From assembly GCF_006345805.1 (NCBI RefSeq), contig NC_043003.1, positions 33,604,001-33,668,000 on the forward strand: 64,000 nucleotides of DNA, written 5' to 3'. The position numbers were made by a program, and so were the translations under genes. The notes under the pieces were generated by a model. It was not told the origin of the DNA. It searched no databases and saw only the letters and a list, made by a program, of their open reading frames with translations. The DNA is from Octopus sinensis. Lineage: Eukaryota. Shown here in pieces: positions 13,058-57,400 of this stretch. Positions within the stretch are counted from its first letter, which is position 1. Every line of letters begins with the position of its first letter.

Positions 13058-13157
13058 NNNNNNNNNNNNNNNNNNNNNNNNNNNNNNNNNNNNNNNNNNN
13101 NNNNNNNNNNNNNNNNNNNNNNNNNNNNNNNNNNNNNNNNNNNNNNNNNNNNNNNNN
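13058..13157. other. Assembly gap (100 N)
   Basis: Run of exactly 100 n. Confidence 1.
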
Positions 13158-20476: not shown

Positions 20477-21198
20477 GCAGTCATTGAGGAGCATATAGAA
20501 ATGTCTACCGTGAATTAAATGTCTCTTACAAAATCAATTAATCAATTAATGAGAGAGAACTCTATCGTGAAAAGTAATCCGTTTATTTTGTAGCTTGCCT
20601 TAAGTATATTGTTTTTCATCTATTTGGTATTGCTATGATAATTGTTGTTGCTGTTATTGCTTTTGGTGTTTTGTTCATGTTGTTGTTGTTGTTGCTGCTG
20701 ATGATGATGTTGCTATTTTTGCCTTTGCCGTTGGATCTCGATATATTGTGTTGATTACAGGTTCAATAATGTTCCGAATTAGATATAGTGTCTTGGCTTC
20801 ATGTCCAGGAAAATTTTATCGACTTACCAAATTTAATTTGTTTCCTTATATATTTACTCATTCAATTATTGAATGCATTTCATTTAAAAGGTTTCATATA
20901 TTAACATAGATATTTTTTTTCCTTTATCTATTCATTTTTTATTTTTCATTTCAGAGATCGACACTCGATATACATACCTATCTGTTGCTTCTAGAAACAT
21001 TAGCCTTATAAGCATTCATCTACAAAAATATTTAAAAATACATATTACGATATATTAAATATAACGGACCCTAATTATTCTGTTAACTGCAAACTATCGC
21101 AATATATAAGAAAATATTCTCTTGCCTGATAACACATATAGAGCTTTCGCAATTATAAGATGGTATTGTCTTCTTATATGGAAACACACAGTGAAACC

Positions 21199-21267
<69 letters not shown>

Positions 21268-21293
21268 ATATGTATGTGTATAAATATATATTA

Positions 21294-21331
<38 letters not shown>

Positions 21332-21441
21332 ATTTATATATCCATTATATGTATACAGACATGCACAAGTACACACACAAACACAAAAACATGCACACAC
21401 ACTCATATATATATATATATATTACAGGGATGTACATGTAT

Positions 21442-21645
21442 AGCAAGTGACCTGATCTGAGATCGTGTGCTGGAAAGAAAACAATTGCAGCGTGGAGATG
21501 CAGCACGAAATTTTGTTAGTGAACAGGTCGCGGTTTCAAAGCGACGAAAATATTTTGACAAATTCAATTTAAATGTTGAATTGAACCTAACGGATATTGT
21601 GTGTTTCTTAAATGGCTTATATATACCTTCCACGCTGCAATTGCG
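21442..21645. mobile_element. ~200-bp insert with 15-bp inverted repeat and HHR-like fold
   Basis: caattgcagcgtgga (21482-21496) / tccacgctgcaattg (21629-21643). Internal gtcgc..gcgac-GAAA-palindrome aaaatatttt; abuts (TA)n. Confidence 0.45.
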
Positions 21646-22469
21646 TGTATATATATATATATATATATATACAAATATATTGTAGCATTATCAACATCCA
21701 TGTGTGCACATGCGCGCAAGTGTTTGTGCGGTGCGTTTGTGTAAAGATGCAATCGTCCAGTCCAATGAAGGTATTGCAAGCCAAACTTCGAAGTAACTCT
21801 CTGCTTTAATATTCTAACGATGTAATGAATATCTTTATTATTCACCACGCATATGACTATTTATTAATAGTTGGCACGTATCAGCAAAATCTTTCTGTGT
21901 GTAAAAAATGGTCTTTGGTCCTTGTTATATTAGATAGTCCGGCGTTTCTTCTGACTAACGTTACATAAAATGTCAAAACACCAGTGTCCCGGAATTCCTT
22001 TTGTAAATGACAAGTGTGTATTAGAAGACAAATGAAGAGCTGTTCTCCTGTGACGAAATGCAGCTCTGCTGATGATATCGGCTTTGGAAACTGCTGGAGT
22101 ATATTAAGAAGATGTGCAAATCATAGAATCTACGTTATTGTACTGAAATGTATTGAGCAATCGTTCACTTTAATCTTTAACTTTTTATTATATATAATAT
22201 ACTTGAATAGATGCACATATATGCATAAAGATTCTTTCGCACAAAGAAACATTCTAGGTTGTTTTGAGATTACCTCCCTGAAGAAGTCTCTCAAAACTAA
22301 ATATCAGCTCATTCCCTAATGCATATCTTTATTTAATTTGTATCATTTCGACGACTGGGATTTCAACAGTTCCCATTTATTCTCCTTTTGATAATTAATT
22401 TCATTTACGCTAATGATACTTCTCATTACATTCGTATCGAAAATTACAGAAAATCAGAAAATCAAACAT

Positions 22470-23515
22470 ACAAGCTCCCCGAGCTTGATGCAGTCAATTT
22501 TCCTTTGAAATTGTGGCTAGACATAACCTGCAGGAAACATGAGCAAGGAGAAAAATCTAGACGAACGTTGGTTTGAGAAGGAATGACTGGTCGTGGATTT
22601 AGTTCAGAGCCTTGAAAGCATTTTTGGGATACCATCAATGAGTGAGTCCGTTTTATCATATTAAAGGCGGTATTAAACCAGTCAGATCCGAGGAAGAGAA
22701 GCCATTATAGTAAGAGGCAAAAAAGAAAGTAGTCTCGTAATATGGAGGTTGCAGTGTGTCTGGAATTGATTTAATGCTAATCTTTCGCATGTTCCTTCTC
22801 TGGATATCCTCCAAGATATCTGCAAAGAGTATCACATATTGTATTGAGTACTGAAATAATTTCTGACCTTGAAGAGAAGGGCCGGTCTCTGTCATGTGGA
22901 CCATTCTATGTTGAGTATATGCTTCCTTAAGACGACGACTTGTTCATTGTAAGACCCAGCTTTTCGAGTGAATATAACGCTCTAAAGGAACATTCTTGTT
23001 TATGCATGACTGGGGAATTCTTTTTATATGTTTAATGATCGAGCTTTTGTTAAAAGAGACAAGTGTGGCATGGTCCCTCAAGAGGTTGCGCTTAAGGTCT
23101 CCCTTATTGAAACCTATCCAGGTTTAGCGTATTGTGTCTAGGTACGTGTCAATAATGCATCATTGCATGAGGTAAAGAAGGAAGAAATATATCATCTGCA
23201 AAACTGAGATCGTTGTGGGTCACAGTGGCAAGTAGATCACTCATATATAGAAGAAATCAATTGGGAGATAAAATTCTGAGGCACAGCAGCGTCCGGTGAG
23301 AGTGGGGAAGAAAAAGTCCTGTGAAGACACACTAAGAAAGTCATTGATCTAAAAGCACAAGCTAGGTGTAGTCAATAGAGGGGAAGATTTGAGTTTCGAA
23401 TGACACATGGCCAAAATGTTTGCTGTACGTTCAGAGAACATCTTGCATGTGAATAGCATAAAGCAGTAAGTCAAAAATGTAGCTAACTCTGTACAAGCCA
23501 TAATGGTGGTCGTTG
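22470..23515 (-). pseudogene. Decayed CR1/Jockey-group LINE RT and C-terminus
   Basis: Minus-strand peptides AAVPQN..LSPN*FLLYMSDLLATVTHNDLSFADD (FADD at 23191-23202), ILEDIQRRNMRKISIKSIPDTLQP..YYNGFSSSDLTGLIPP and QSFLLKPT..LLAHV; many stops and frameshifts. Confidence 0.7.
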
Positions 23516-23759
23516 GAAAGAGAGAACGAGAGACAGAGAGACAGACAGATAAATAAAGAGAGAGAGAGAGAGATAGAGACGGAGACAGAGACAGAGAGGG
23601 AGAGAGAGAAAGAGAGAGAGCTCGCGAAAGAAAGGAGAGACCGGGAGATATATCAGTTGTTAGAAAGCTCCTTAATGAATGTTAACATTATTTTAAAGAC
23701 GTTATTTCATTAAGCATGTTAGTATGCACGAATCAATCAATCAATCAATCTATCTGTCC

Positions 23760-23832
<73 letters not shown>

Positions 23833-23859
23833 ACTATATATATCTAACTATATATATAT

Positions 23860-23897
<38 letters not shown>

Positions 23898-24073
23898 ACA
23901 GACCCACACACACACATATACATACAAACAAGTGAGTGAATAAACGAAAGAAGGGCAGTTAACCAATTTATTGGGAGTTACATGTATGGATCCAAACGCT
24001 TCAAACTCAGCAGTACCAACGTATTTGTATGAAACTTTTGATCATATATATACACTCATGCATACATACATAC

Positions 24074-24131
<58 letters not shown>

Positions 24132-25232
24132 ATATATATATAAACAAACACATATATATACATATATATTTATTTGTTTGTTTGTATACATGTATGTATG
24201 TATGTAGAGAAAGCGAGAGAGTGGGAGAGAGAGAGAGATCACAAACTAATTGCTGAAGACAAGTTATATAGCACAATACATATTGCATAGTACTCGTTGT
24301 GTGGAACTTATCATTCCATGGGTTGCACATTTTAAGGGAATAGAATAGAATAGTTTGATAATAGTAATTATCGAAAAAACAAAATAATTTCCCTTGTGCA
24401 CATTGAGCATTGAACATTGCATTGTAAACTTGCAGCAATTTCACATAGAGTAGAATGTAAGTGTTAGTAAATCTTTGTGTGTTGTCCAATTGCCATGATT
24501 AATATTTTTTTGTTTAAGATTTATATTTTATGTTCTTATGATATTTTAGGTGTTAGAATACGATCAAAAATCTCGAATATGACGATGAAATGCTCATCAT
24601 TTGTGTTAAACTTAATTAGTAAGGAATCATTTTCAGAATTGCAATAACTCAAATACCCAATCTAGTGGAATAAAAATACTTCAAAGAAACAAAGCATTCG
24701 ACTATTAACGTTACAATATTCACATTCAGCAGTTGATATTTTAATGACAGAGACAAACATGAAACGCTCCCGCTTTATAATAGATTTTAAAATTGTGCTC
24801 ATGAGATATTAAAATAACTACAACGAGTATAAGCTAATATATACTATCAGATATACATACCTGCATCCATCAATCCATCCATCCTTCCATCCATCCATCC
24901 ATCCATCCATCCATCCATCTATCCATCCATTCATCGATTTATACATACGAGCGTACATGAACGACATGCGTATTTATACATTAAGCCGCACATAGTATTA
25001 AATATGAAAAAAAAAAATTAAAAGAAACTTCGGAAAAGCTGAATTCAGTGAAACAGGATCTAGGTCAGTTGAATATGACCTTTCATGTATTAAAAGAAAC
25101 CCTTTTAGCAGCAAACTCGAAAATGTTTAAGCTAAAACCATTTTCTAAGTATTCTTAAGTAGACGGAAACTGAAAGAATCCCTTCGTATATATATATAAC
25201 ATATATATGTATACATATATATACATACATAT

Positions 25233-25268
<36 letters not shown>

Positions 25269-25270
25269 AT

Positions 25271-25321
<51 letters not shown>

Positions 25322-25357
25322 CTCTGAACGAGTTAGAAGCAGTAGCTGCACGATAAA

Positions 25358-25606
25358 GTGAAGTATATTTGTCACCTAAATGTGGCTAACCACTAAGGAG
25401 GGGAATGCTACTGTAGTTTGTAGCCCCAGGAGAACATCTTCTCCAGGTGGCTAATGACGCACTTTCTTTTGGCACAATTTCTTTTTGCCCTAAGGCACAG
25501 AAAGTGTGTCAATAGCCAGCTGGAGAAGCTGTTCTTCTGGGGCTACAAGCTACAGTACCATCCACCCTTAATGGTTAGCCACATTTAGGTGGCAAATATA
25601 CTTCAC
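25358..25606. repeat. Fold-back element, ~110-bp imperfect inverted arms with ~30-bp spacer
   Basis: gtgaagtatatttgtcacctaaatgtggctaacc...gacgcactttct versus agaaagtgtgtc...ggttagccacatttaggtggcaaatatacttcac. Confidence 0.85.
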
Positions 25607-25635
25607 ACACACATAAATATATATATATATATATA

Positions 25636-26094
25636 TATATTATATTAAATTAGAGATAAAACCACTATTAGGCAAATCATACAATGAAAAACTTAAGCCA
25701 ATACATAAGATTAATTAATTTATATTATTTTAAATATATATCAAAATTATTAAAAAAAGATAATTAGTATAACACTACGATCGTTTCATTGATTAAACCT
25801 CGCCAAATATTTCAATCACCTGAAGAATGACTGTAACTCGAATTTTTACGAATTGGACAGCCATGAAACGATCGTAGTGTTATACTAATTATCTTTTTTT
25901 AATAATTTTGATATATATTTAAAATAATATAAATTAATTAATCTTATGTATTGGCTTAAGTTTTTCATTGTATGATTTGCCTAATAGTGGTTTTATCTCT
26001 AATTTAATATAATATAATATTTTACTATAAAATTGGATTTAATCCTAAATCTGATTTTTCCCTGTAAGTTTGGATTTATTCCCTAATATTTTAT

Positions 26095-26097
<3 letters not shown>
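25636..26097 (+). mobile_element. Asymmetric fold-back element: 154-bp perfect inverted arms (25636-25789 / 25863-26016), 73-bp spacer, unpaired tail; PLE-like terminus
   Basis: Arms are exact reverse complements by eye. Inserted in (TA)n; spacer plus right arm contain an HHR. Confidence 0.8.
25817..25879 (+). ncRNA. Minimal type I hammerhead ribozyme motif
   Basis: cac-CTGAAGA-atgactgt..acagccat-GAAAC-gatc-GTA-gtg. Core is intact, stem II is 7/8 bp, stem III is the palindrome acgatcgt, triplet GUA, stem I only ~3 bp. Confidence 0.7.
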
Positions 26098-26174
<77 letters not shown>

Positions 26175-26304
26175 CAGGGAGGGTAGAAAGAAATTAGGCA
26201 TTAGAAACTGCTTATAGAATGTTTAGTATCACTGAAGTCATGACAAAAATATTTTTTAAACAGGCAACACTAACGGGGATTTCTTATTTTCTTATTGTCT
26301 TATG

Positions 26305-26475
26305 ATTTTCCACCCTCAATCGCTTGATAGGCGATGTTGGTGTGTTTACGGGGACGTAAACACACCGATAGAATAAGGACTAGGCTTACAAATAAAAATC
26401 CTGGGATCAATGTTTTCGACTGAAGGTGGTGCTCCAGTATGGTCGCAGTGAAATGACTAAGACAAGCAAAAAGAA
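26305..26475 (+). mobile_element. 3' half of SINE family B with an internal micro-inversion
   Basis: cgcttga..gatgttggtgtgtttacg...accgatagaataag..ggtgctccagtatggtcgcagtgaaatgact. Confidence 0.75.
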
Positions 26476-27910
26476 AAAAAAATATATGGACCAAACAGTT
26501 TGATTCCAATTTGTAGATATTCTTGAGTTTCAAGCGTGATGCTAGTCTTCCGCCATTTCATACAATTTTCTACGAAATGAAATAAGCGCAGCATGAATGC
26601 TCGATGAAGCTGCCGGTAACGTTCAATTTACAGCTGTAGTATATTCAACACTTACATTAACAATGCCTACTACGCCAAAAATGAATAAAAATGTGAGAGA
26701 AAAAACACGCCAAAATACATCAAACTGTTGATGATACTACAAAATATCAGAAGCATTAAAGTTGAACTTAGGGAGCAGGCGATGTTGACAAAAATACAAC
26801 CAGCATATTGCAACCGGATACATAAAAAGCAAATATATTTTGAATGAAAGGGTTTGTGCATTTCATGTCCGTTTATACAAATACCCATATATTTTATATA
26901 TCCGTACAATATTATCTTAATGTAGTTTTTAAATGTCCCGAATCCCTTAAAGCGTGTGTAGATTTCTTTCTAGCATTCAGAGACTATACTCAGGTCTACA
27001 AAATATATGGCTTCCGAGAATGTAAACCAAGTTATATCAATTTATCTAGGACAGTACAGCATGAAAGTTTATGCCTCTTTTCTCGACACACTGAACGCAT
27101 CAGCCATTACCATCGCTTTCACAGCAAAAATATCGATTCGATTTTCTGTAGTTTATATTCAACAGCATAAACACAGTGCATTTATATGTACACGCGTACA
27201 TTTACACACATATGTATGTATGGATATATATATTATGTGTGACTGTGTGTTTATTCGTGTGTATGTATGTGCGTATGTATATATGTCAGTTTGCATGTGT
27301 GTGTGTGTTTGCATAAATACAGGTATAAACGCCATATTTCTCTCTCTCTTTCACTCTCTGTATATAAATATATATATATATATGTATGTATATATATATA
27401 CGTGTATATATATGTATGTATATATATATACGTGTATGTTTTGCATCCTCTCATATATATATATGCATGGAAATATGCAATCGTTCACACATATACCCAC
27501 GCATGTGCGAACCCACATATTCCACATACACATTGATCAGTCAAATACACTGCAGCGCGACATACATATATCTGTGTATATGTGAATATATAGATGTATG
27601 CATATTATATGCATTCATATGAGTGTGCATGCAGGTATGTATGTATATACGTTGGTATAAAACCGTAAATTTGAAGAATAGTCGAAGTATACTCTCCCGG
27701 CGGTATTCGCTCGGCGTAATAGGGAAAGACAGATAAAACAGTGATGGTAATGACATACGATTTACATCCGAAAGTAAACCTGTACGCTGTGGCATTCCCT
27801 TATTGGTAATGTGGTATTTGTTGTTAAACTTCAGTGACAATTTGTAAATGAATAAATAAGTTAAATCTTGCTAAAATATTCAGTTTTCCTCTTATACTTG
27901 CTTGCATGTT

Positions 27911-27969
<59 letters not shown>

Positions 27970-28013
27970 GTCTATCTATTTATCTATATATCTGTATAGC
28001 TAGTTGTCTATTG

Positions 28014-28052
<39 letters not shown>

Positions 28053-28870
28053 ATGTGTAATCTATTTGTTCAAGATATATATATCTATATATATATATAC
28101 ATACATATATATACATGTATATATATATACATGTATATATATATATATACATATATATATAAATATATATATATATATGTGTGTGTGTGTGTTTGTATGT
28201 TTGTTTGTATATTTATACCGATATAGACAGTACCATTTAGATAGGTGGTCACCTATGTAGCTAGCTATTCACTAATCAAATACGTAGTAACATAGCTACA
28301 ATCCACCCTTATTATTTATCATTTTTACCGTTACAGTTCAGGAAATCAGCGTGTGGTATCAATGATAATCTTACAAACTGGCATAAGCATATTGATTTTT
28401 AGCTGTAGCTTAGTGTCGTTATGTTTAAGGAAAACATTAAAGGTATTCACAGTATCTAATGTTTTATAGGATCTTCTCTGGATGTATATGATAGATATTC
28501 TGGTTATTCTTGAGGAGTTCAAACTACACCGAAACGCACGCGTCCAACAATCTATTGACATTATTCATAGTCCCTCTTGTGCTTTCATAAATGCCTAAGA
28601 TGAAAATTTACTCACAGAAATCTGTCTACACTAACGTACTGAATATGATTACACCAAAATATATAATATCAGTTTGAATATCGCTTATTCTGCGCAGAAC
28701 TTTCACGTGTATTTATTTCACTCCTACAAAATTTTATGATTTGAGATTTTGAGTCAAGCTATTATAACACAGACATTAAATCATAGAATTGAGTTTCTTT
28801 TTCATTGCTAGTTGGTATATACATATACATACATACATACATAAGGACATACATACCTATATTTATATAT

Positions 28871-28949
<79 letters not shown>

Positions 28950-29744
28950 CATGTATATATATAAAATACATACTCATCCCCCACAAACACACACACACAC
29001 ATATATATATATACGTATATATATATTTACATATATATATATATATATATGTATACATTTATATTTATTTATATATACACATATGTACGTATGCATATTT
29101 GTGTGTCTGTGTGCCTATGTGCATTTATGCATGAAATGCTTGTAAGTAAGATTTATATGCATATATATGCATGCTGCAACAATGACAACAATTTCTACTA
29201 TCCATGCATAAGAAACTTTGTGACATCTTCCTATGTAAATTACAACTGGGTCATTGATTTTGGAATAAACAAATTTACTACACACGTCCTGTAAATGTTT
29301 CCATGAAATGCAGCACTACTAGAAATCAACCAACCGTTGCTATGATCTTTTATATACCATTTAGGCTGTTATTATCAAAAGTCCTTTATACATTAACGGT
29401 GACACTGTTCTTCACAACATTTAATTGCAGCATGTGAGTGATATGAACAAATGTAACAGGAACAGTTTGTTTTCTGATTTTCTTACGTTTCACTGCGAAT
29501 GTCATTATGTGACGTGGATGAAGAGCAATAATTCCCTTGTTTTAGACGAGTTGTGTCAAGAAGTAAAAGTTTATTATGTGATATTCCTTGAGAAGACGAA
29601 ACAAATTCTGCAAACAAAGCTCTTAGAAACATTTCTGCTGTGCATCATTAATGATACTCACGCATAAACACATGCACACACTTAAACACAAAAGCCAACA
29701 AACTCACACGCATAGACTCACGCATTAGCAAAGGTATATTAAAC

Positions 29745-29777
<33 letters not shown>

Positions 29778-29811
29778 AATATCTTTATGTATGTATATGT
29801 ATATATATCTA

Positions 29812-29884
<73 letters not shown>

Positions 29885-29899
29885 CTCTCTCTCTATCTA

Positions 29900-29964
<65 letters not shown>

Positions 29965-29977
29965 GTATGTATATACA

Positions 29978-30260
29978 CGACCTTTTTGTGAGCACAGTTT
30001 GTGACAGACCATACCTTTTTTCTGCAGGTCTCATTTGCGAACACATGGAAAACGAACGTCAACCAACTATTCTGCCCATGTGTCTGTGCATACATTTCAA
30101 TGCAATGTGTGCCAGAAGGTCTGCAAATCTAACGGAGGCCTCAAAAGACATTTTAAGATCCACAAAGATCAGAACAAAGAATACTTGAATGACATAACCA
30201 GTAATTACAAAGACACTAAATTTCAAACCTGCTGTATTTGTCAAACGAAACATTAACTAC
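29978..30260 (+). pseudogene. C2H2 zinc-finger relic (one intact and two broken fingers), probably the C-terminus of an RTE-type LINE
   Basis: FQCNVCQKVCKSNGGLKRHFKIH at 30095-30163. Upstream frameshifted FVSTVCDRPYLFSAGL..RTH and downstream CCICQ; no TGEKP linkers; starts directly at a microsatellite. Confidence 0.6.
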
Positions 30261-30599
30261 AAAGATATCGTAATCGATGAACACTCACATAGTTATGCGA
30301 TATATTTTTAGAACGTTCTATCAATTCAGAAGTGGAAATAAAATAAAAATTTAGATTAGAAAAATGTGTCAATACAAAATTGAAGAGAGAAATATTAAAA
30401 GTAACTACACGTCATTTTGCTTAAACGAACTACAAATAAGGTAATATGAGCAAAAACTGATTAAGAATTACTTATAAATTAATTTATTCACCCACCGATG
30501 AATAAAAACTTTAAGCTGGAATATTAAAGATGCATTATATTAAACTTAAACTTAAACTAAATGCTAGTAAGAATGTAATTAATACTGTTGATGTTATAA

Positions 30600-31730
30600 T
30601 CACCATATTCTTAACAGAAATCTACGGGAATTGTCAGAGCTGAACAGGAAAAGCATGAAGTTAATCACAGCATTAGGAATACACATCGCCAAATCTAATA
30701 CACAATGATTATATAGGAAGTGACTTCTGCATGTAGAAAATTATAATAAAATATCTACCACAGAAGTGCAAATAAATTTAATAAATAAACAGAAACCTAA
30801 AATTTATGAAGGAAACGAAAAATTGTTTTCTATCCTGAAGGAAGAAATGGAATATGAAACAGCCACTAAGGCAACGGATATCTGGGGTGAAAGGTTATGA
30901 TGAAGAAATAACAACAAAAGCAAATAAAAATATTTAAAAAGTAATAAGGTGAAAATAGGATTGCAAAATGCATGCTGAGTTAGTAAAAAAGAATCCCTTA
31001 CGTGCCCAATAGCGTCTACGAAATGATAAAAATGAAAGAAATACAACATTATGTAAGGGGTGGGGCATTCAAGCAAGATCGAACGATTTCTGATTGCATC
31101 AAGAAAGCTGAAGCTTTTGCGTCATAAATTACCAAAACCTATAATACAGCAGAATGTTAGAACGGAACTGGAACACAAGGCTACATTCGGATGTTTTGTG
31201 CGAATAATTTATCATGCTGGCTTTTGGCTGCTCTGACTTAATAGAAAAAGAATTTATTTAGTCATGATATATTTCAAGATTTGATACACACAGAAATGTA
31301 TGCCCGTGTTATGAATTATCAGCGTAGAAAAATGGTAATGCTATCTTCCACCACAAAAGATCTTAGATTATAACAAAGACGCCATACACTTGGACATGTC
31401 AATTCTTAGGGTTAAGAAAAAGATCAGATATTGTCAAAGGCTACCAGGAAAGAAGTGTCCCATGTATCAATCCCACTATACAAAACGTATAACAAAAAGA
31501 AAAAAAGAGAAATAAACCAAATGTAAAGACCGTGAAATAATGAGAACCAGAATAAATGAATTGAACACGAAAACAGTTCTGGTAATAAAAGGTTTCTTCA
31601 GAATTATCTATTAAAATGCAGGCAAGTATCTAACCGAAACCGTACGTCTTACACATAAGCACAAACTACAGACGGTGCTACTTTAGCATACGATTTATTG
31701 CAGTGTCCGTAGTGTACTCTGAGAAATTAC
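30600..31730 (+). pseudogene. Highly decayed 3' part of an RLE-type (R4/Dong-like) non-LTR retrotransposon
   Basis: Peptides in order: FGCSDLIEKEFI*..HD (cf. SGC..LA..EY..RHD), EKW*..PQKILDYNKDAIHLDMSI (cf. ILWD), SDIV (cf. RPDIV), VSIP, EK*TKCKDREI (cf. EK..KY.DL). 5' limit is approximate. Confidence 0.6.
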
Positions 31731-41147: not shown

Positions 41148-41420
41148 AGATGAGGAATTATGTACATTATTTACATTATTTACATTTGACAGATATTTGT
41201 CCTTATCTTGTTTGTTGTTAACACAGCATTTCCGCTGATGTACTCTACAGCATTCACCACCCGATAATATTAACATAGGAAAAATACCTTAGGAATGAGA
41301 ACCCACGTTCAAAATACCCCCAGGGCACCTGATGAAGGATGGAGAGTACATCAGCCGAAACGGTGCGTTAAAAACAAACAAGATGAGGACAAATAGCCGT
41401 CAAATGTAAATAACATAAAT
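41148..41420. mobile_element. Fold-back PLE-like terminus (arms ~41176-41259 / 41330-41413) with decayed HHR at 41324-41369(+)
   Basis: ttatttacatttgacagatatttgtcc..tcacca versus tgatga..ggacaaatagccgtcaaatgtaaataa. Motif: ggcac-CTGATGA-a-ggatg..cagcc-GAAAC-GGT-gcgtt. Confidence 0.7.
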
Positions 41421-41688
41421 AGTGTATACGTTATGTTCGTCGATATGCACAAATACATATTCATGTCGTTGTGATGGTGATGGTAATATTGGACATATTT
41501 TCTCCATTCGTCTCCATGATCGACATTGAATTGTTCGATCAGGCTTCACACTTACTCATGAATTTCATATACAAGAAACTGAATATTGCGTTAGCATGAA
41601 TGTTCTTAATTCAGTTGTAACGAAATTCGGCAAGGCTGTACTTCAGAATTATATACACAATGTAGAGATACAAACCAGGGAGAGAGAG

Positions 41689-42678: not shown

Positions 42679-42900
42679 TCAATATAAGGGTAGCAAAAAA
42701 TTCAATAGGAATTTTTTTCGCCACCAGCGGTCTAGTGAGAAAGAGTAAATAGTTACAGACTATATATATATAATTTCAACAATATTAAGGAATGGCCCTG
42801 ATAGGCCATTCGACTCACCAGAAAGAGCAGCCAAACTCAAACCGCTAAATAGTAGTAATTCAGAAATCAAAGGAAAATTAAAAAACATTTACCCTAATCA

Positions 42901-43003
42901 TCTTTGGACAATGCATTGTTTCGACGTACTTTATGGCAAACCAGCCTAATTAAATTAAATTTAATCAAGTTAATTTACCAATGGCTCGTCTCATCGGCAA
43001 AGA
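42901..43003 (-). ncRNA. Type I hammerhead ribozyme, variant core CCGAUGA
   Basis: Minus strand: tctttg-CCGATGA-gacg-[60-nt insert]-cgtc-GAAAC-aatgcatt-GTC-caaaga. Stem I is 6 bp; stem III is the perfect palindrome acaatgcattgt. Confidence 0.7.
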
Positions 43004-43385
43004 AGCCAGGAGGAATAAACATTCCACGAGGCAGCAGCTTCGATGCCTCGGGAATGTATACTCTAAATTTTCAGAATCTACCGTAATCGCGCCAACTTAT
43101 CAGCAGCAAATATAAAGTGATGATTTAATTTCAGAATTAGTCAAAAAATCATTAATTAATCAATATAAGGGTAGCAAAAAATTCAATAGAAATTTTTTTC
43201 GCCACCAGCGGTCTAGTGAGAGAGAGAAAATAGTTACAGACTATATATATATATATAATTTCAACAATATTAAGGAATGGCCCTGATAGCCCATTCGACT
43301 CACCAGAAAGAGCTGCCAAACTCAAACCGCTAAATAGTAGTAATTCAGAAATCAAAGGAAAATTAAAAAACATTCACCCTAATCA

Positions 43386-43493
43386 TCTTTGGACAATGCA
43401 TTGTTTCGACGTACTTTATGGCAAACCAGCCTAATTAAATTAAATTTAATTTAATCAAGTTAATTTACCAATGGCTCGTCTCATCGACAAAGA
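43386..43493 (-). ncRNA. Second copy of the hammerhead motif, core UCGAUGA
   Basis: Same stems as 42901-43003; GUC sites are 485 nt apart. Confidence 0.6.
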
Positions 43494-44918
43494 AGCCAGG
43501 AGGAATAAACATTCCACGAGGCAGCAGCTTCGATGCCTCGGGAATGTATACTCTAAAGTACGTCGAAACAATGCATTGTCCAATGCATTAGGGTAAATGT
43601 TTTTTTTAATTTTCCTTTGATTTCTGAATTACTGCTATTTAGCGGTTTGAGTTTGGCTGCTCTTTCTGGTGAGTCGAATGGCCTATCAGGGCCATTCCTT
43701 AATATTGTTGAAATTATATATATATATATAATAGATACGTTAACGAATATGTGTGTGTTTGTGTACGTGTCAGCTTGCGTGAGTATGTGTGCGCAGGTAA
43801 TTTCAGAAGCTTGAACTACACATGTTTAGAAGCATATAGATCAGAGAAACAAAAATATAGAGGCAGATGCAAACCCACATATTCCAGCATAGAGGAATTG
43901 ATGTAGTTTAGTATAAAAACATGCGTTGCTAATTTTTACCTCAAGAGTCATATCGCAACAATGTCGATGAAATAAAACAGTGGACGTTCGCTTTAACAGA
44001 CTATAGCATTGAATGCATTGTTCCAACATAGCCCAGATTATAATAAATGAATCCAGTCACAGAACGAAGAAACAACACATACAAATACAATAAATAAATA
44101 TATAGTGGTTGCTACAAGCTATTAAAAACAGTAGCTAAATGCTACCGCCTGAACTGCTTATGAGTACATGAAAAAATGCATATTGGATAATGCAGTCTGT
44201 GATATACTACCTCGGGGAAAAGATAAAAAAAGGAAACAAAAAAAAAATTAACCAAAATTAAGAAGTGTATTGCACTGCCTTAAGTGGCTTTGATCATGCC
44301 CGATTTGTGGCTAAACTACAGTAATAAAATAGCAACGGCTTTAACAATATGAACAACAACAACACTCATAGATATTTTGTTTAGGCTTTTGGTTTTATAT
44401 CATTACTTTTCTCTTTCGTTTCTTACTCTCTATGTCGTGTTTTGTTTGTTTGTTTGTTTTTCTATTACAAATCTCTATTTTCATTTGTATCCTCTTAATT
44501 ATAACATTTTCACATTTCATAAATTCCTTCGTAATCTCCTTCTGTTCCGCTTTATTTCCTCCTCTCTTTCCCTCTCCTTCTCACTCTCTTTCAGTTTTGC
44601 CTTCCTCTCTGCCTCTTGTTAAACTATCTTTATTTTTACAGACACTTATTCTTGTTCTTACTCAACATATTCCTTCCATTCTATCATTCTCTTTTTCCTT
44701 ACCTACTGCTTCGTTTCACTCTCTTCTCATCTGCCCATTCATTCTCCATCGCAGTCTTCCCCACTCTCTTTCTCTCTATCTCTCATTCTCTCTCTATCTC
44801 TCACTCTCTCTCATATCATAGTAAATGTTTTATTAAAATTATTATTTTACGTTCACTTCTTTCAATTTTTCTTACCTAGCACCGCTTTTTACTACAACCT
44901 TCATTATAAATCTCACTA

Positions 44919-53965: not shown

Positions 53966-54005
<40 letters not shown>

Positions 54006-54007
54006 TA

Positions 54008-54294
54008 TTGTGTCTGGGGAGAGTCATTTTCTTATTGTGCCTTATTATTTAACACACTCACTCCTTTCTTACTTTTATTTTACTAAAATGTTCGTTATGT
54101 CTTGCAACCTTTTCTTGAAAAGGTTGCCAGACGAAACGAATATTTTAGGAAAATAAAAATAAGAAATAAGCGGAAATTTTAACGGTGAGTATGTTAAATT
54201 ATAAGGCACAATCAGAAAATGACTCTCTCCAGACACAACAGAATATGCTTTAACGCACGAACTCACAAAAAGAATCTTGCAAACCAAATCCCAA

Positions 54295-56055: not shown

Positions 56056-57400
56056 ATAACTTAGGATAACTTAGAAAGGTTTTGGCCAGTATTGGCCCAG
56101 GCCATGTCTAACTTAATAGCACCACCTGGCGAAGTCTTTCAGTTCAGGATTTGGGCACCAAGGCCCATTCGAGCAGAGAGTTATTGTTTGCGGAGACATA
56201 TCCGGGTGTGGGTGGTTTGTCCGGTACTGTTTGAAGGAATTTGTCCAAAGACTTCTTGAATTTTTTGTGGTCAGTTTCTTTTTTGACGTGCCCTGGTGTA
56301 ATGTTGAAGAGAGCAGGTCCAATTGAGGTGAAATAGTTGTGCCGTATTGTCGTTATGTGATGCGATTTAGATTTTTGTTGTGGACGGATGGCACGTGGTC
56401 CTAGCCTTGGAAGCATTTTGAAGGTGATGCCAACATCATTCGGACAGTGCTGGTGGAATATTTTCCACATCATACAGATAATGTAGCGTTCACGGCGTCG
56501 TTGGAGTGAATACAATTTCAGCTTCTCTAGTCTACCCCAGTAGTCAAGGTCTGACATGCCATCTATCTTTTTTGTGATTGACCTTTGGGGAGCTTCAATT
56601 CTCATAGTATTTTGTTTTGTGTAGGGAGACCACAGTGGACAGCAGTATTCAAGGTGGGGTCGGGCAAAAGTGGAGAACAGAAGGATAATAGCGTGGGAAT
56701 CTCTTGACTGGAAGGTTCTGAGAATCCAGGAACACATTCTGCGGGCCATGTCAACTTTGCTGCTTATATGTGTAGCCCAGCTTATGTTGTTGTCCACTGT
56801 TACTCCCAGGTCTCTGATGTTGTTGGATGCCATGAGAATTTCTCCAGAAGGAAGAGAGTATGGGAGTTTCAGAGTGTCCTCTCTTCCAAAGTGGATCAGT
56901 TCAAATTTGTCTTCATTTAGCAACATGTTATTCTTTTCCGCCCATTGGACAACAGCCAGTAGGTCTGACTGAAGGTTTATTCGGTCATCCACGCCATTGA
57001 TGACCTTCTGGAGCTTGGAATTATCAGCGAAGGTTCTGATGTTACTGTGTTTGATGGTGTCAGTAATATCATTTATGTAGATGATGAAGAGAAGTGGGCC
57101 CAACACAGTGCCTTGTGGGACACCACTGCTGACTTTGGCTGGGCTGGATTTGACTCCTTCGATTACAACATGTTGGGTTCTGTTAGACAGGAAGCACTTG
57201 ATCCACTGCAGCAGCTTTCCAGTGACACCAATATTGGACAGCTTTCTCAGAAGGATCTTATGATCTTATGATCAACCCTGTCAAAAGCCTTGCTGAAATC
57301 AAGGTAGATGACATCAGTGTTGGAACCTTCTCCCAAGGCTCTCAAAATGTCATCAAAATGATGCAGTATGTCATCAAAATGATGCAGTATATCATCAAAA
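56056..57400 (-). mobile_element. 5'-truncated CR1-group LINE (RT and C-terminus, 3' UTR, short tandem tail)
   Basis: YLDFSKAFDRVDH / GVPQGTVLGPLLFIIYIND / FADN / RPHLEYCCPLWSP. 3' UTR hairpin ggcca-atac-tggcc and tail (ctaagttat)x2 on the minus strand. Confidence 0.93.
56144..57368 (-). pseudogene. Reverse transcriptase pseudogene of the CR1-group LINE (includes ORF 56144-57106)
   Basis: Open frame from ~57260 to the stop at 56144. An 8-bp tandem duplication gatcttat (57254-57269) shifts the upstream frame. Catalytic (F/Y)ADD reads FADN; no endonuclease domain. Confidence 0.9.

Follow-up and report, generated by a model that had tools for sequence, protein, structure and literature searches.

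A head-to-head stub of a Penelope-like element in Octopus sinensis, and family-wide evidence favoring two-ended priming on one spliced sense RNA

The locus and its surroundings

The window (the whole 64,000-nucleotide stretch of Octopus sinensis contig NC_043003.1 that we analyzed) contains an insertion whose features are collected in Table 1. Its two arms, 154 nt each and separated by a 73-nt spacer, match exactly as reverse complements. The original prediction, made from the letters alone, described a perfect 154-bp inverted repeat with an unpaired tail of about 80 bp and (TA)n at both ends, and each of these elements was recovered, the tail measuring 81 nt. The outermost 4 or so bases of the arms are (TA)n rather than element, and the innermost 5 bases (TTCAT/ATGAA) form a microhomology native to the family. 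Because both insertion ends sit in (TA)n, a target-site duplication would be masked. The tail consists of two 37-nt units that are 70% alike (26011-26047 and 26048-26084), and in full elements it continues into the open reading frame (ORF). Relative to the usual spliced form, the splice junction of this copy is short by 5 nt and sits at a second GT; it was found at one other locus. Use of a cryptic GT donor is possible, and a small deletion equally so.

Table 1. Features of the insertion, in window coordinates
Feature	Position	Strand	Remark
(TA)n target microsatellite, left part	25613..25639	.	Any target-site duplication hidden inside
Inverted 5'-truncated pLTR arm	25636..25789	-	Outer end is S1, the family's fixed short end
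TTCAT microhomology, common to both arms	25785..25789	+	Complement of ATGAA at 25863-25867
Exon 1 remnant	25785..25806	+	Splice junction between 25806 and 25807
Type I hammerhead motif	25817..25879	+	Predicted cut after 25876; copied uncut
Forward pLTR arm (parent element's 5' UTR), reaching S1	25863..26016	+	Exact reverse complement of the inverted arm
PLE tail, about 80 nt, ending at S2 (fixed long end)	26017..26097	+	
(TA)n then (TG)n, target microsatellite, right part	26098..26169	.	

Directly left of the stub's (TA)n lies an imperfect 250-bp hairpin (25358-25606) that is 81% self-complementary, is present in high copy by contig depth and looks MITE-like. Other self-palindromic elements and inverted pairs of 94-96% identity occur at 54000-54246, 41163-41426 and 42761-43730. 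A 373-residue RT-like frame was called by eye on the minus strand (56147-57265), and an assembly gap of 100 N occupies 13058-13157. No host exon was recognizable by eye among the 116 stop-to-stop frames listed for the window, only an RT-like fragment. Within 21000-31000, four putative-RNA contig sets cover repeat parts only and not the unique flanks, and thus provide no evidence either way; four DNA or untyped contig sets are fragmented at microsatellites, too much to show the junction or an empty site.

It is likely, when taken together with the mechanism proposed below, that the locus is a young head-to-head stub, lacking both ORF and intron, that derives from a Hydra-clade Penelope-like element (PLE). 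By itself it is an ordinary PLE stub, and its layout of inverted arm, one-sided tail and (TA)n target is already published PLE anatomy. Endonuclease-bearing (EN+) PLEs with an inverted pLTR plus tail likewise form 5'-truncated head-to-head copies with the tail at one end (Craig et al. 2021, PMC8557442, Fig. 2 legend; Arkhipova et al. 2013, PMC3846280), and a PLE tail is often found at one end only (PMC8557442). EN+ PLEs also share with the octopus family a hammerhead in the pLTR, microhomology or a palindrome at the junction and an intron in the 5' UTR (PMC8557442, PMC3846280). Their published tail is 30-40 nt, in contrast to the octopus tail of about twice that length.

Family and parent element

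In the genome searched (2.72 Gb), an initial DNA search gave 1,323 candidates, of which 40 were scored, and a tight pattern for the 5' core then identified at least 1,341 motif-bearing copies, with none in the control. Other members of the family therefore carry the CUGANGA/GAAAC motif, whose absence from them had been named beforehand as grounds for dropping the original reading. Walking upstream from the stub, we reached open frames of 689 and 538 residues. Two long copies (L108 and L127) show the order intron, hammerhead, tail and ORF, and in L108 the hammerhead-tail segment flanks the ORF on both sides at a spacing of about 4.9 kb, as a partial tandem with pLTRs. The tail was directly upstream of the ORF at 19 of 30 loci picked by ORF start. 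The first in-frame ATG seen is about 70 nt past the tail, unlike in PAc/Poseidon of Anolis, where the ORF starts inside the ribozyme (PMC11167929).

Parent copies encode RT (YRDD) and C-terminal GIY-YIG-type (VVY..IYIG) motifs in a single ORF, which the window stub does not have and which is broken in every parent copy inspected. Homologues of the parent protein numbered 329 at E<=1e-10, many with PF26215, and a Pfam search with P0001 and P0002 returned no significant family. By the diagnostic motifs of PMC8557442 section 11, the parent is classified as a Hydra-clade EN+ PLE. It has DKT instead of DKG (SDKTR at 68 of P0001), a CxCX5C linker (CTCRDKTKC at 598), and CxxC and CxH around conserved E and N (CYLC..E and CRH in the C-terminal frame). 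No CCHH was seen by eye in the parent protein, and where the N-terminal RWK motif aligns the sequence is RIKWKA, with K in place of R. Family copies also conform in their (TA)n insertion sites. Among the 120 homologues listed, CxCX5-7C and DKT/S are common to 118 and 117, respectively. The unit is about 4.9 kb long rather than the <3 kb general for the Hydra clade, a length that is a tendency and no strict criterion (PMC8557442).

The C-terminal endonuclease, DKT, CxCX5C, CxxC/CxH and (TA)n targets are shared with the Hydra clade, including Hydra-1_Obim, and the RT blocks match by eye the Hydra alignment printed in PMC8557442. Helix II of the Hydra-1_oBim hammerhead likewise opens with A and closes with U. 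Hydra-1_Obim is nevertheless another family of the clade, with a different N terminus and ribozyme, and four exact motifs of the octopus family had no matches in the covered part of the PMC8557442 supplement. Apart from unit length, the octopus family differs from the Hydra clade as described there in its asparagine-rich insert, long 3' UTR and 0.64-0.95-kb intron. The insert, observed in L112 (P0001 residues about 425-510), lies between RT and endonuclease and resembles that of rotifer Penelopes in PMC3846280.

The parent, with its RT and GIY-YIG motifs, and the closeness of the window copy to its subfamily majority agree with the prediction of a very recent PLE-type insertion. The left arm differs from that majority at none of 144 columns, and the right arm plus tail differs at 6 of 295, including the 5-nt-short junction.

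The hammerhead motif

The motif comprises CTGAAGA (25820-25826), GAAA (25865-25868), C-GATC-G-TA (25869-25876) and GTG (25877-25879). A hammerhead descriptor matched only here in the 64 kb, versus a mean of 0.13 matches over 30 block shuffles, and Rfam at the gathering threshold gave no matches in the whole window. Helix I has 3 bp; helix II has 7 of 8 pairs, with one A-C mismatch and an A-U closing pair; helix III has 2 bp and a palindromic 4-nt loop. The CUGANGA, GAAA and UH core and helices I to III are all present, as in a type I hammerhead with a short helix III. The original prediction of a minimal hammerhead in the spacer was thus right about the motif and wrong about its class: the minimal form of PMC4209133 has no helix III or loop 3 and has a G10.1-C11.1 pair, whereas this one retains helix III with its loop and closes helix II with A-U.

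Across 14 chosen variants the core is unchanged except at N7, and loop II varies in length. In these variants 85% of helix cells are paired, compared with 14-53% in slid controls. One clear compensatory pair was found (U-A to C-G), and pairs with two-sided change were no more frequent than in shuffles. Four loci (L238, L256, L258 and L263) form a subfamily in which a long extended hairpin serves as loop II and the core is fixed.

The monomer fold of the ribozyme was computed at -0.2 kcal/mol and the long hairpin at -233.8 kcal/mol, and the ribozyme segment folds worse than all 200 of 200 shuffles. The ribozyme is accordingly modeled as a weak, dimer-type motif, with the monomer predicted to be nearly unfolded. 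Hammerheads of this type were found to need a dimer (PMC4209133), and insertion in vitro can do without the anole hammerhead, which requires protein (PMC11167929). The PLE hammerheads of Cervera and de la Pena 2014 (PMC4209133) are similar in their short helix I, long helix II and palindromic helix III, and they too are predicted to need a dimer or protein. In D. virilis, the intron also has its 3' end just upstream of helix I (PMC4209133). The octopus motif differs from these hammerheads in having helix III and no G10.1-C11.1 pair, and its intron ends 10 nt before helix I, not at it.

Genomic copies were also examined for a trace of self-cleavage: the 5' ends of 28 shorter arms do not cluster at the cut site, with 2 falling within 4 nt. 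The original prediction held that a transcript would form a long double-stranded RNA (dsRNA) and sequester the ribozyme. Both follow from the folding energies, albeit for a monomer predicted to be nearly unfolded anyway, and sequestration probably matters little because the ribozyme appears to be a weak, dimer-type motif. The stub resembles metazoan non-LTR retrozymes (bioRxiv 10.64898/2026.07.22.740005) as an ORF-less repeat with a type I hammerhead and a tie to PLEs. Retrozymes, however, consist of two or more units in tandem, every one with a complete hammerhead, and the window has one sense motif and no tandem array, in a truncated end of an ORF-bearing element.

Spliced copies, fixed ends and the origin of the inverted arms

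Long copies carry an intron in the 5' UTR that ends 10 nt before helix I. Reading splicing from genomic copies, we found 21 distinct introns of 644-945 nt; all have a GT donor, and AG was a condition of the search. In pattern counts, 480 places have the exact spliced junction and 52 the intact donor; a locus-wise tally had left 28 of 97 unclear. Octopus copies that reach the exon junction are therefore mostly spliced, whereas PMC8557442 and PMC3846280 stress intron retention. A second splice form uses the same acceptor with a GT donor further upstream, in the 3' UTR region; it was observed at L178, L186 and L197 (3 of 88 loci), and in both arms of L186.

Spliced and unspliced copies differ in how far they extend. 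We compared 40 of the 52 unspliced places with 40 spliced loci drawn from the 100 that were listed out of 480: sequence beyond AGTTCATTG was present in 37 of 40 unspliced arms and in 0 of 42 spliced arms (Fisher p 3e-20, with loci not all independent). Some unspliced loci, among them four on contig C22, may be segmental duplicates. In an earlier sample, none of 37 truly spliced rows went beyond AGTTCATTG (46 rows, of which 9 were unspliced or spurious). The split is not absolute, since a targeted search recovered several spliced copies that do pass this point (e.g., L004, L032-L034, L047 and L049). From these genomic copies we infer that the wall at AGTTCATTG is the 5' end of the RNA.

Arm ends fall at two fixed points, S1 (26016-26020 in the window) and S2 (26097). 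The first sample comprised 88 distinct pattern-picked loci from the first 100 listed of 1,341 matches, with 2 duplicates dropped. Head-to-head copies made up 29 of the 88, about a third, and 28 of them combined an S1 with an S2 end (the other was S1/S1); solo copies ended at S1 in 38 cases and at S2 in 21. Independent ends would give S1 plus S2 at most 50% of the time (p 6e-8 for 28/29). The same combination was found in all 21 inverted insertions of a second sample of 40 fresh spliced loci, so that across both samples 49 of 50 inverted insertions have one short arm and one tail-bearing arm.

The two arms of a copy also resemble each other. At 48 loci (4 of 52, L029, L032, L177 and L189, were dropped for short or unrelated arms), the arms disagree at 18 of 550 diagnostic cells, compared with 41% (minimum, 26%) in 2,000 shuffles. 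Where at least 5 diagnostic sites were available, the arms agreed fully at 31 of 41 loci and had 2-3 discordant sites at 5 (L069, L147, L215, L223 and L233). Splice form was shared by both arms at all 12 classifiable loci, of 14 in which both arms reach the acceptor. L069 and L147, with 3 diagnostic differences each, are candidate two-template insertions. The idea prompted by L069, that arms often come from different subfamilies, did not hold generally across the 48 loci.

The junction between the arms recurs as well. That of the window was found at 10 loci (5 exact and 5 with one mismatch; control, 0); these loci differ in their flanks, belong to two subfamilies and carry the tail on one arm or the other. 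TTCAT occurs at the 5' limit of spliced copies, in the window at most 2 nt from this putative RNA start, and the ribozyme contains its complement, ATGAA. Recurrence of the junction at TTCAT argues for repeated microhomology joining and against an artefact or a single origin; the latter was ruled out because the junction spans subfamilies. The same junction is seen in a third subfamily at L200. A near-identical sister stub at another site (L002, G000 C8:55251843) has the same junction, a splice junction 4 nt short and a U-to-C change in the ribozyme core. Junctions at L205, L208, L216 and L326 contain a short palindrome at the putative RNA 5' end, which suggests that the cDNA briefly snapped back or that two complete cDNAs annealed end to end.

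The spliced/unspliced split, the fixed ends and the concordance of the arms favor two-ended priming on one sense RNA. As reconstructed from genomic end products, a single sense RNA, spliced and uncut, would serve both cut strands of the (TA)n target as template, with each strand priming reverse transcription from its own fixed start site and the two sites lying about 80 nt from each other. The cDNA of the right arm plus tail would run to the RNA 5' end, and the left-arm cDNA would stop inside the hammerhead; the two cDNA 3' ends would then anneal at TTCAT/ATGAA and be filled in. The anole PLE protein cuts and extends both target strands in vitro and uses two start sites bounding the tail on an uncut RNA template (PMC11167929). 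PAc/Poseidon of Anolis (Frangieh et al. 2024) thus resembles the octopus family in its start sites, its AT-rich target and its template; the covered part of that paper has no treatment of splicing or inverted arms. The stub is probably a dead end, because it has neither an ORF nor sequence upstream of the presumed RNA start. On this reading the hairpin arises as a side effect of the insertion and is no switch kept by selection.

An unlikely alternative is that the inverted arm arose by fold-back self-priming of one cDNA, or of antisense RNA as in PMC3846280, with ends set by staggered endonuclease resolution. Fold-back predicts both the arm concordance and microhomology or palindromes at junctions, and it requires the tail to be on the longer arm, which holds for the window copy. 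A copied arm, however, cannot exceed its template at the 3' end, yet the tail is on the earlier-stopping arm equally often (e.g., L062, L067 and L068). The arm extending further 5' was S1 in 7 fresh loci and S2 in 7, with 7 ties (12, 16 and 8 in another tally), which simple fold-back cannot produce. The precise spliced junctions and palindromes need a sense template, which counts against the antisense version. Snap-back may still contribute at some junctions, given the short fold-back palindromes in L205, L208 and L216.

Alternatively, each arm could be copied from a different RNA molecule, usually of the same source element, held by a protein dimer such as that predicted in PMC11167929. Concordance would also be expected from same-source RNAs, and the five loci with 2-3 discordant sites indicate that some insertions may use two templates. 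As a general account we regard this as improbable: both arms of L186 carry a donor variant that is rare in the family, a mixed spliced/unspliced arm pair occurred at 0 of 12 loci, and separate RNAs alone leave the near-constant pairing of S1 with S2 unexplained.

We give very little credence to the idea that gene conversion, or selection for an editing or small interfering RNA (siRNA) substrate or a ribozyme switch, maintains arm identity. If transcribed, the arms would pair into a 154-bp duplex that hides the ribozyme's 3' half, and the rarity of perfect arms (2 of 48 inverted copies, with 7 differing at one site or none) also counts in favor. That rarity equally speaks against the ongoing arm conversion proposed in the original prediction, and divergence in the spacer and tail is as low as in the arms, so recency suffices for the perfect match. 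Arm lengths differ from copy to copy, and the weak monomer fold, worse than that of every shuffle, also counts against this idea. Nor did an ADAR imprint appear, with no A>G excess among arm differences (22 A>G, 40 T>C). A fold-back read or assembly artefact is the least credible explanation: no contig piece among the matches listed spans the junction, but the palindrome ends at the fixed S1 without entering flanking DNA, the left and right flanks differ, and the recurrence of this junction at 9 further loci, where both arms carry the subfamily variants particular to that locus, makes neither an artefact nor conversion necessary.

Two-ended priming on a sense RNA also bears on why PLEs keep introns. 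In D. virilis the intron is 46 nt from the start, and retention has been explained by selection (PMC2377424); an antisense template has also been proposed for PLEs (PMC3846280). We found no description of spliced genomic PLE stubs or of a spliced/unspliced split in the covered parts of the open-access literature and of the PMC8557442 supplement. Intron-less stubs, all but a few ending at one point, likely explain why full-length copies retain the intron. We tentatively propose, with slightly less than even confidence in the scheme as a whole, that one tandem transcript carrying the two RT start sites twice resolves the puzzle of retained introns with no need of an antisense template. Reverse transcription begun in the upstream, cap-proximal pLTR, where the intron is spliced, would run out at the RNA start and leave short dead stubs such as the window copy. 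If begun instead in the downstream, read-through pLTR, where the intron is kept, it would yield the only copies able to carry promoter and ORF, with each insertion primed from two strands on that RNA and closed by microhomology.

The family offers countable genomic evidence on two questions left open in PMC8557442 and PMC3846280, namely, inverted arms with a one-sided tail and the keeping of introns by PLEs. This evidence speaks for a sense template with two-ended priming; the predictions that follow, one RNA start site and two RT start sites, are testable in the in vitro system of PMC11167929. With about a third of its copies built as long hairpins, the family may also be a passive source of dsRNA, if transcribed.
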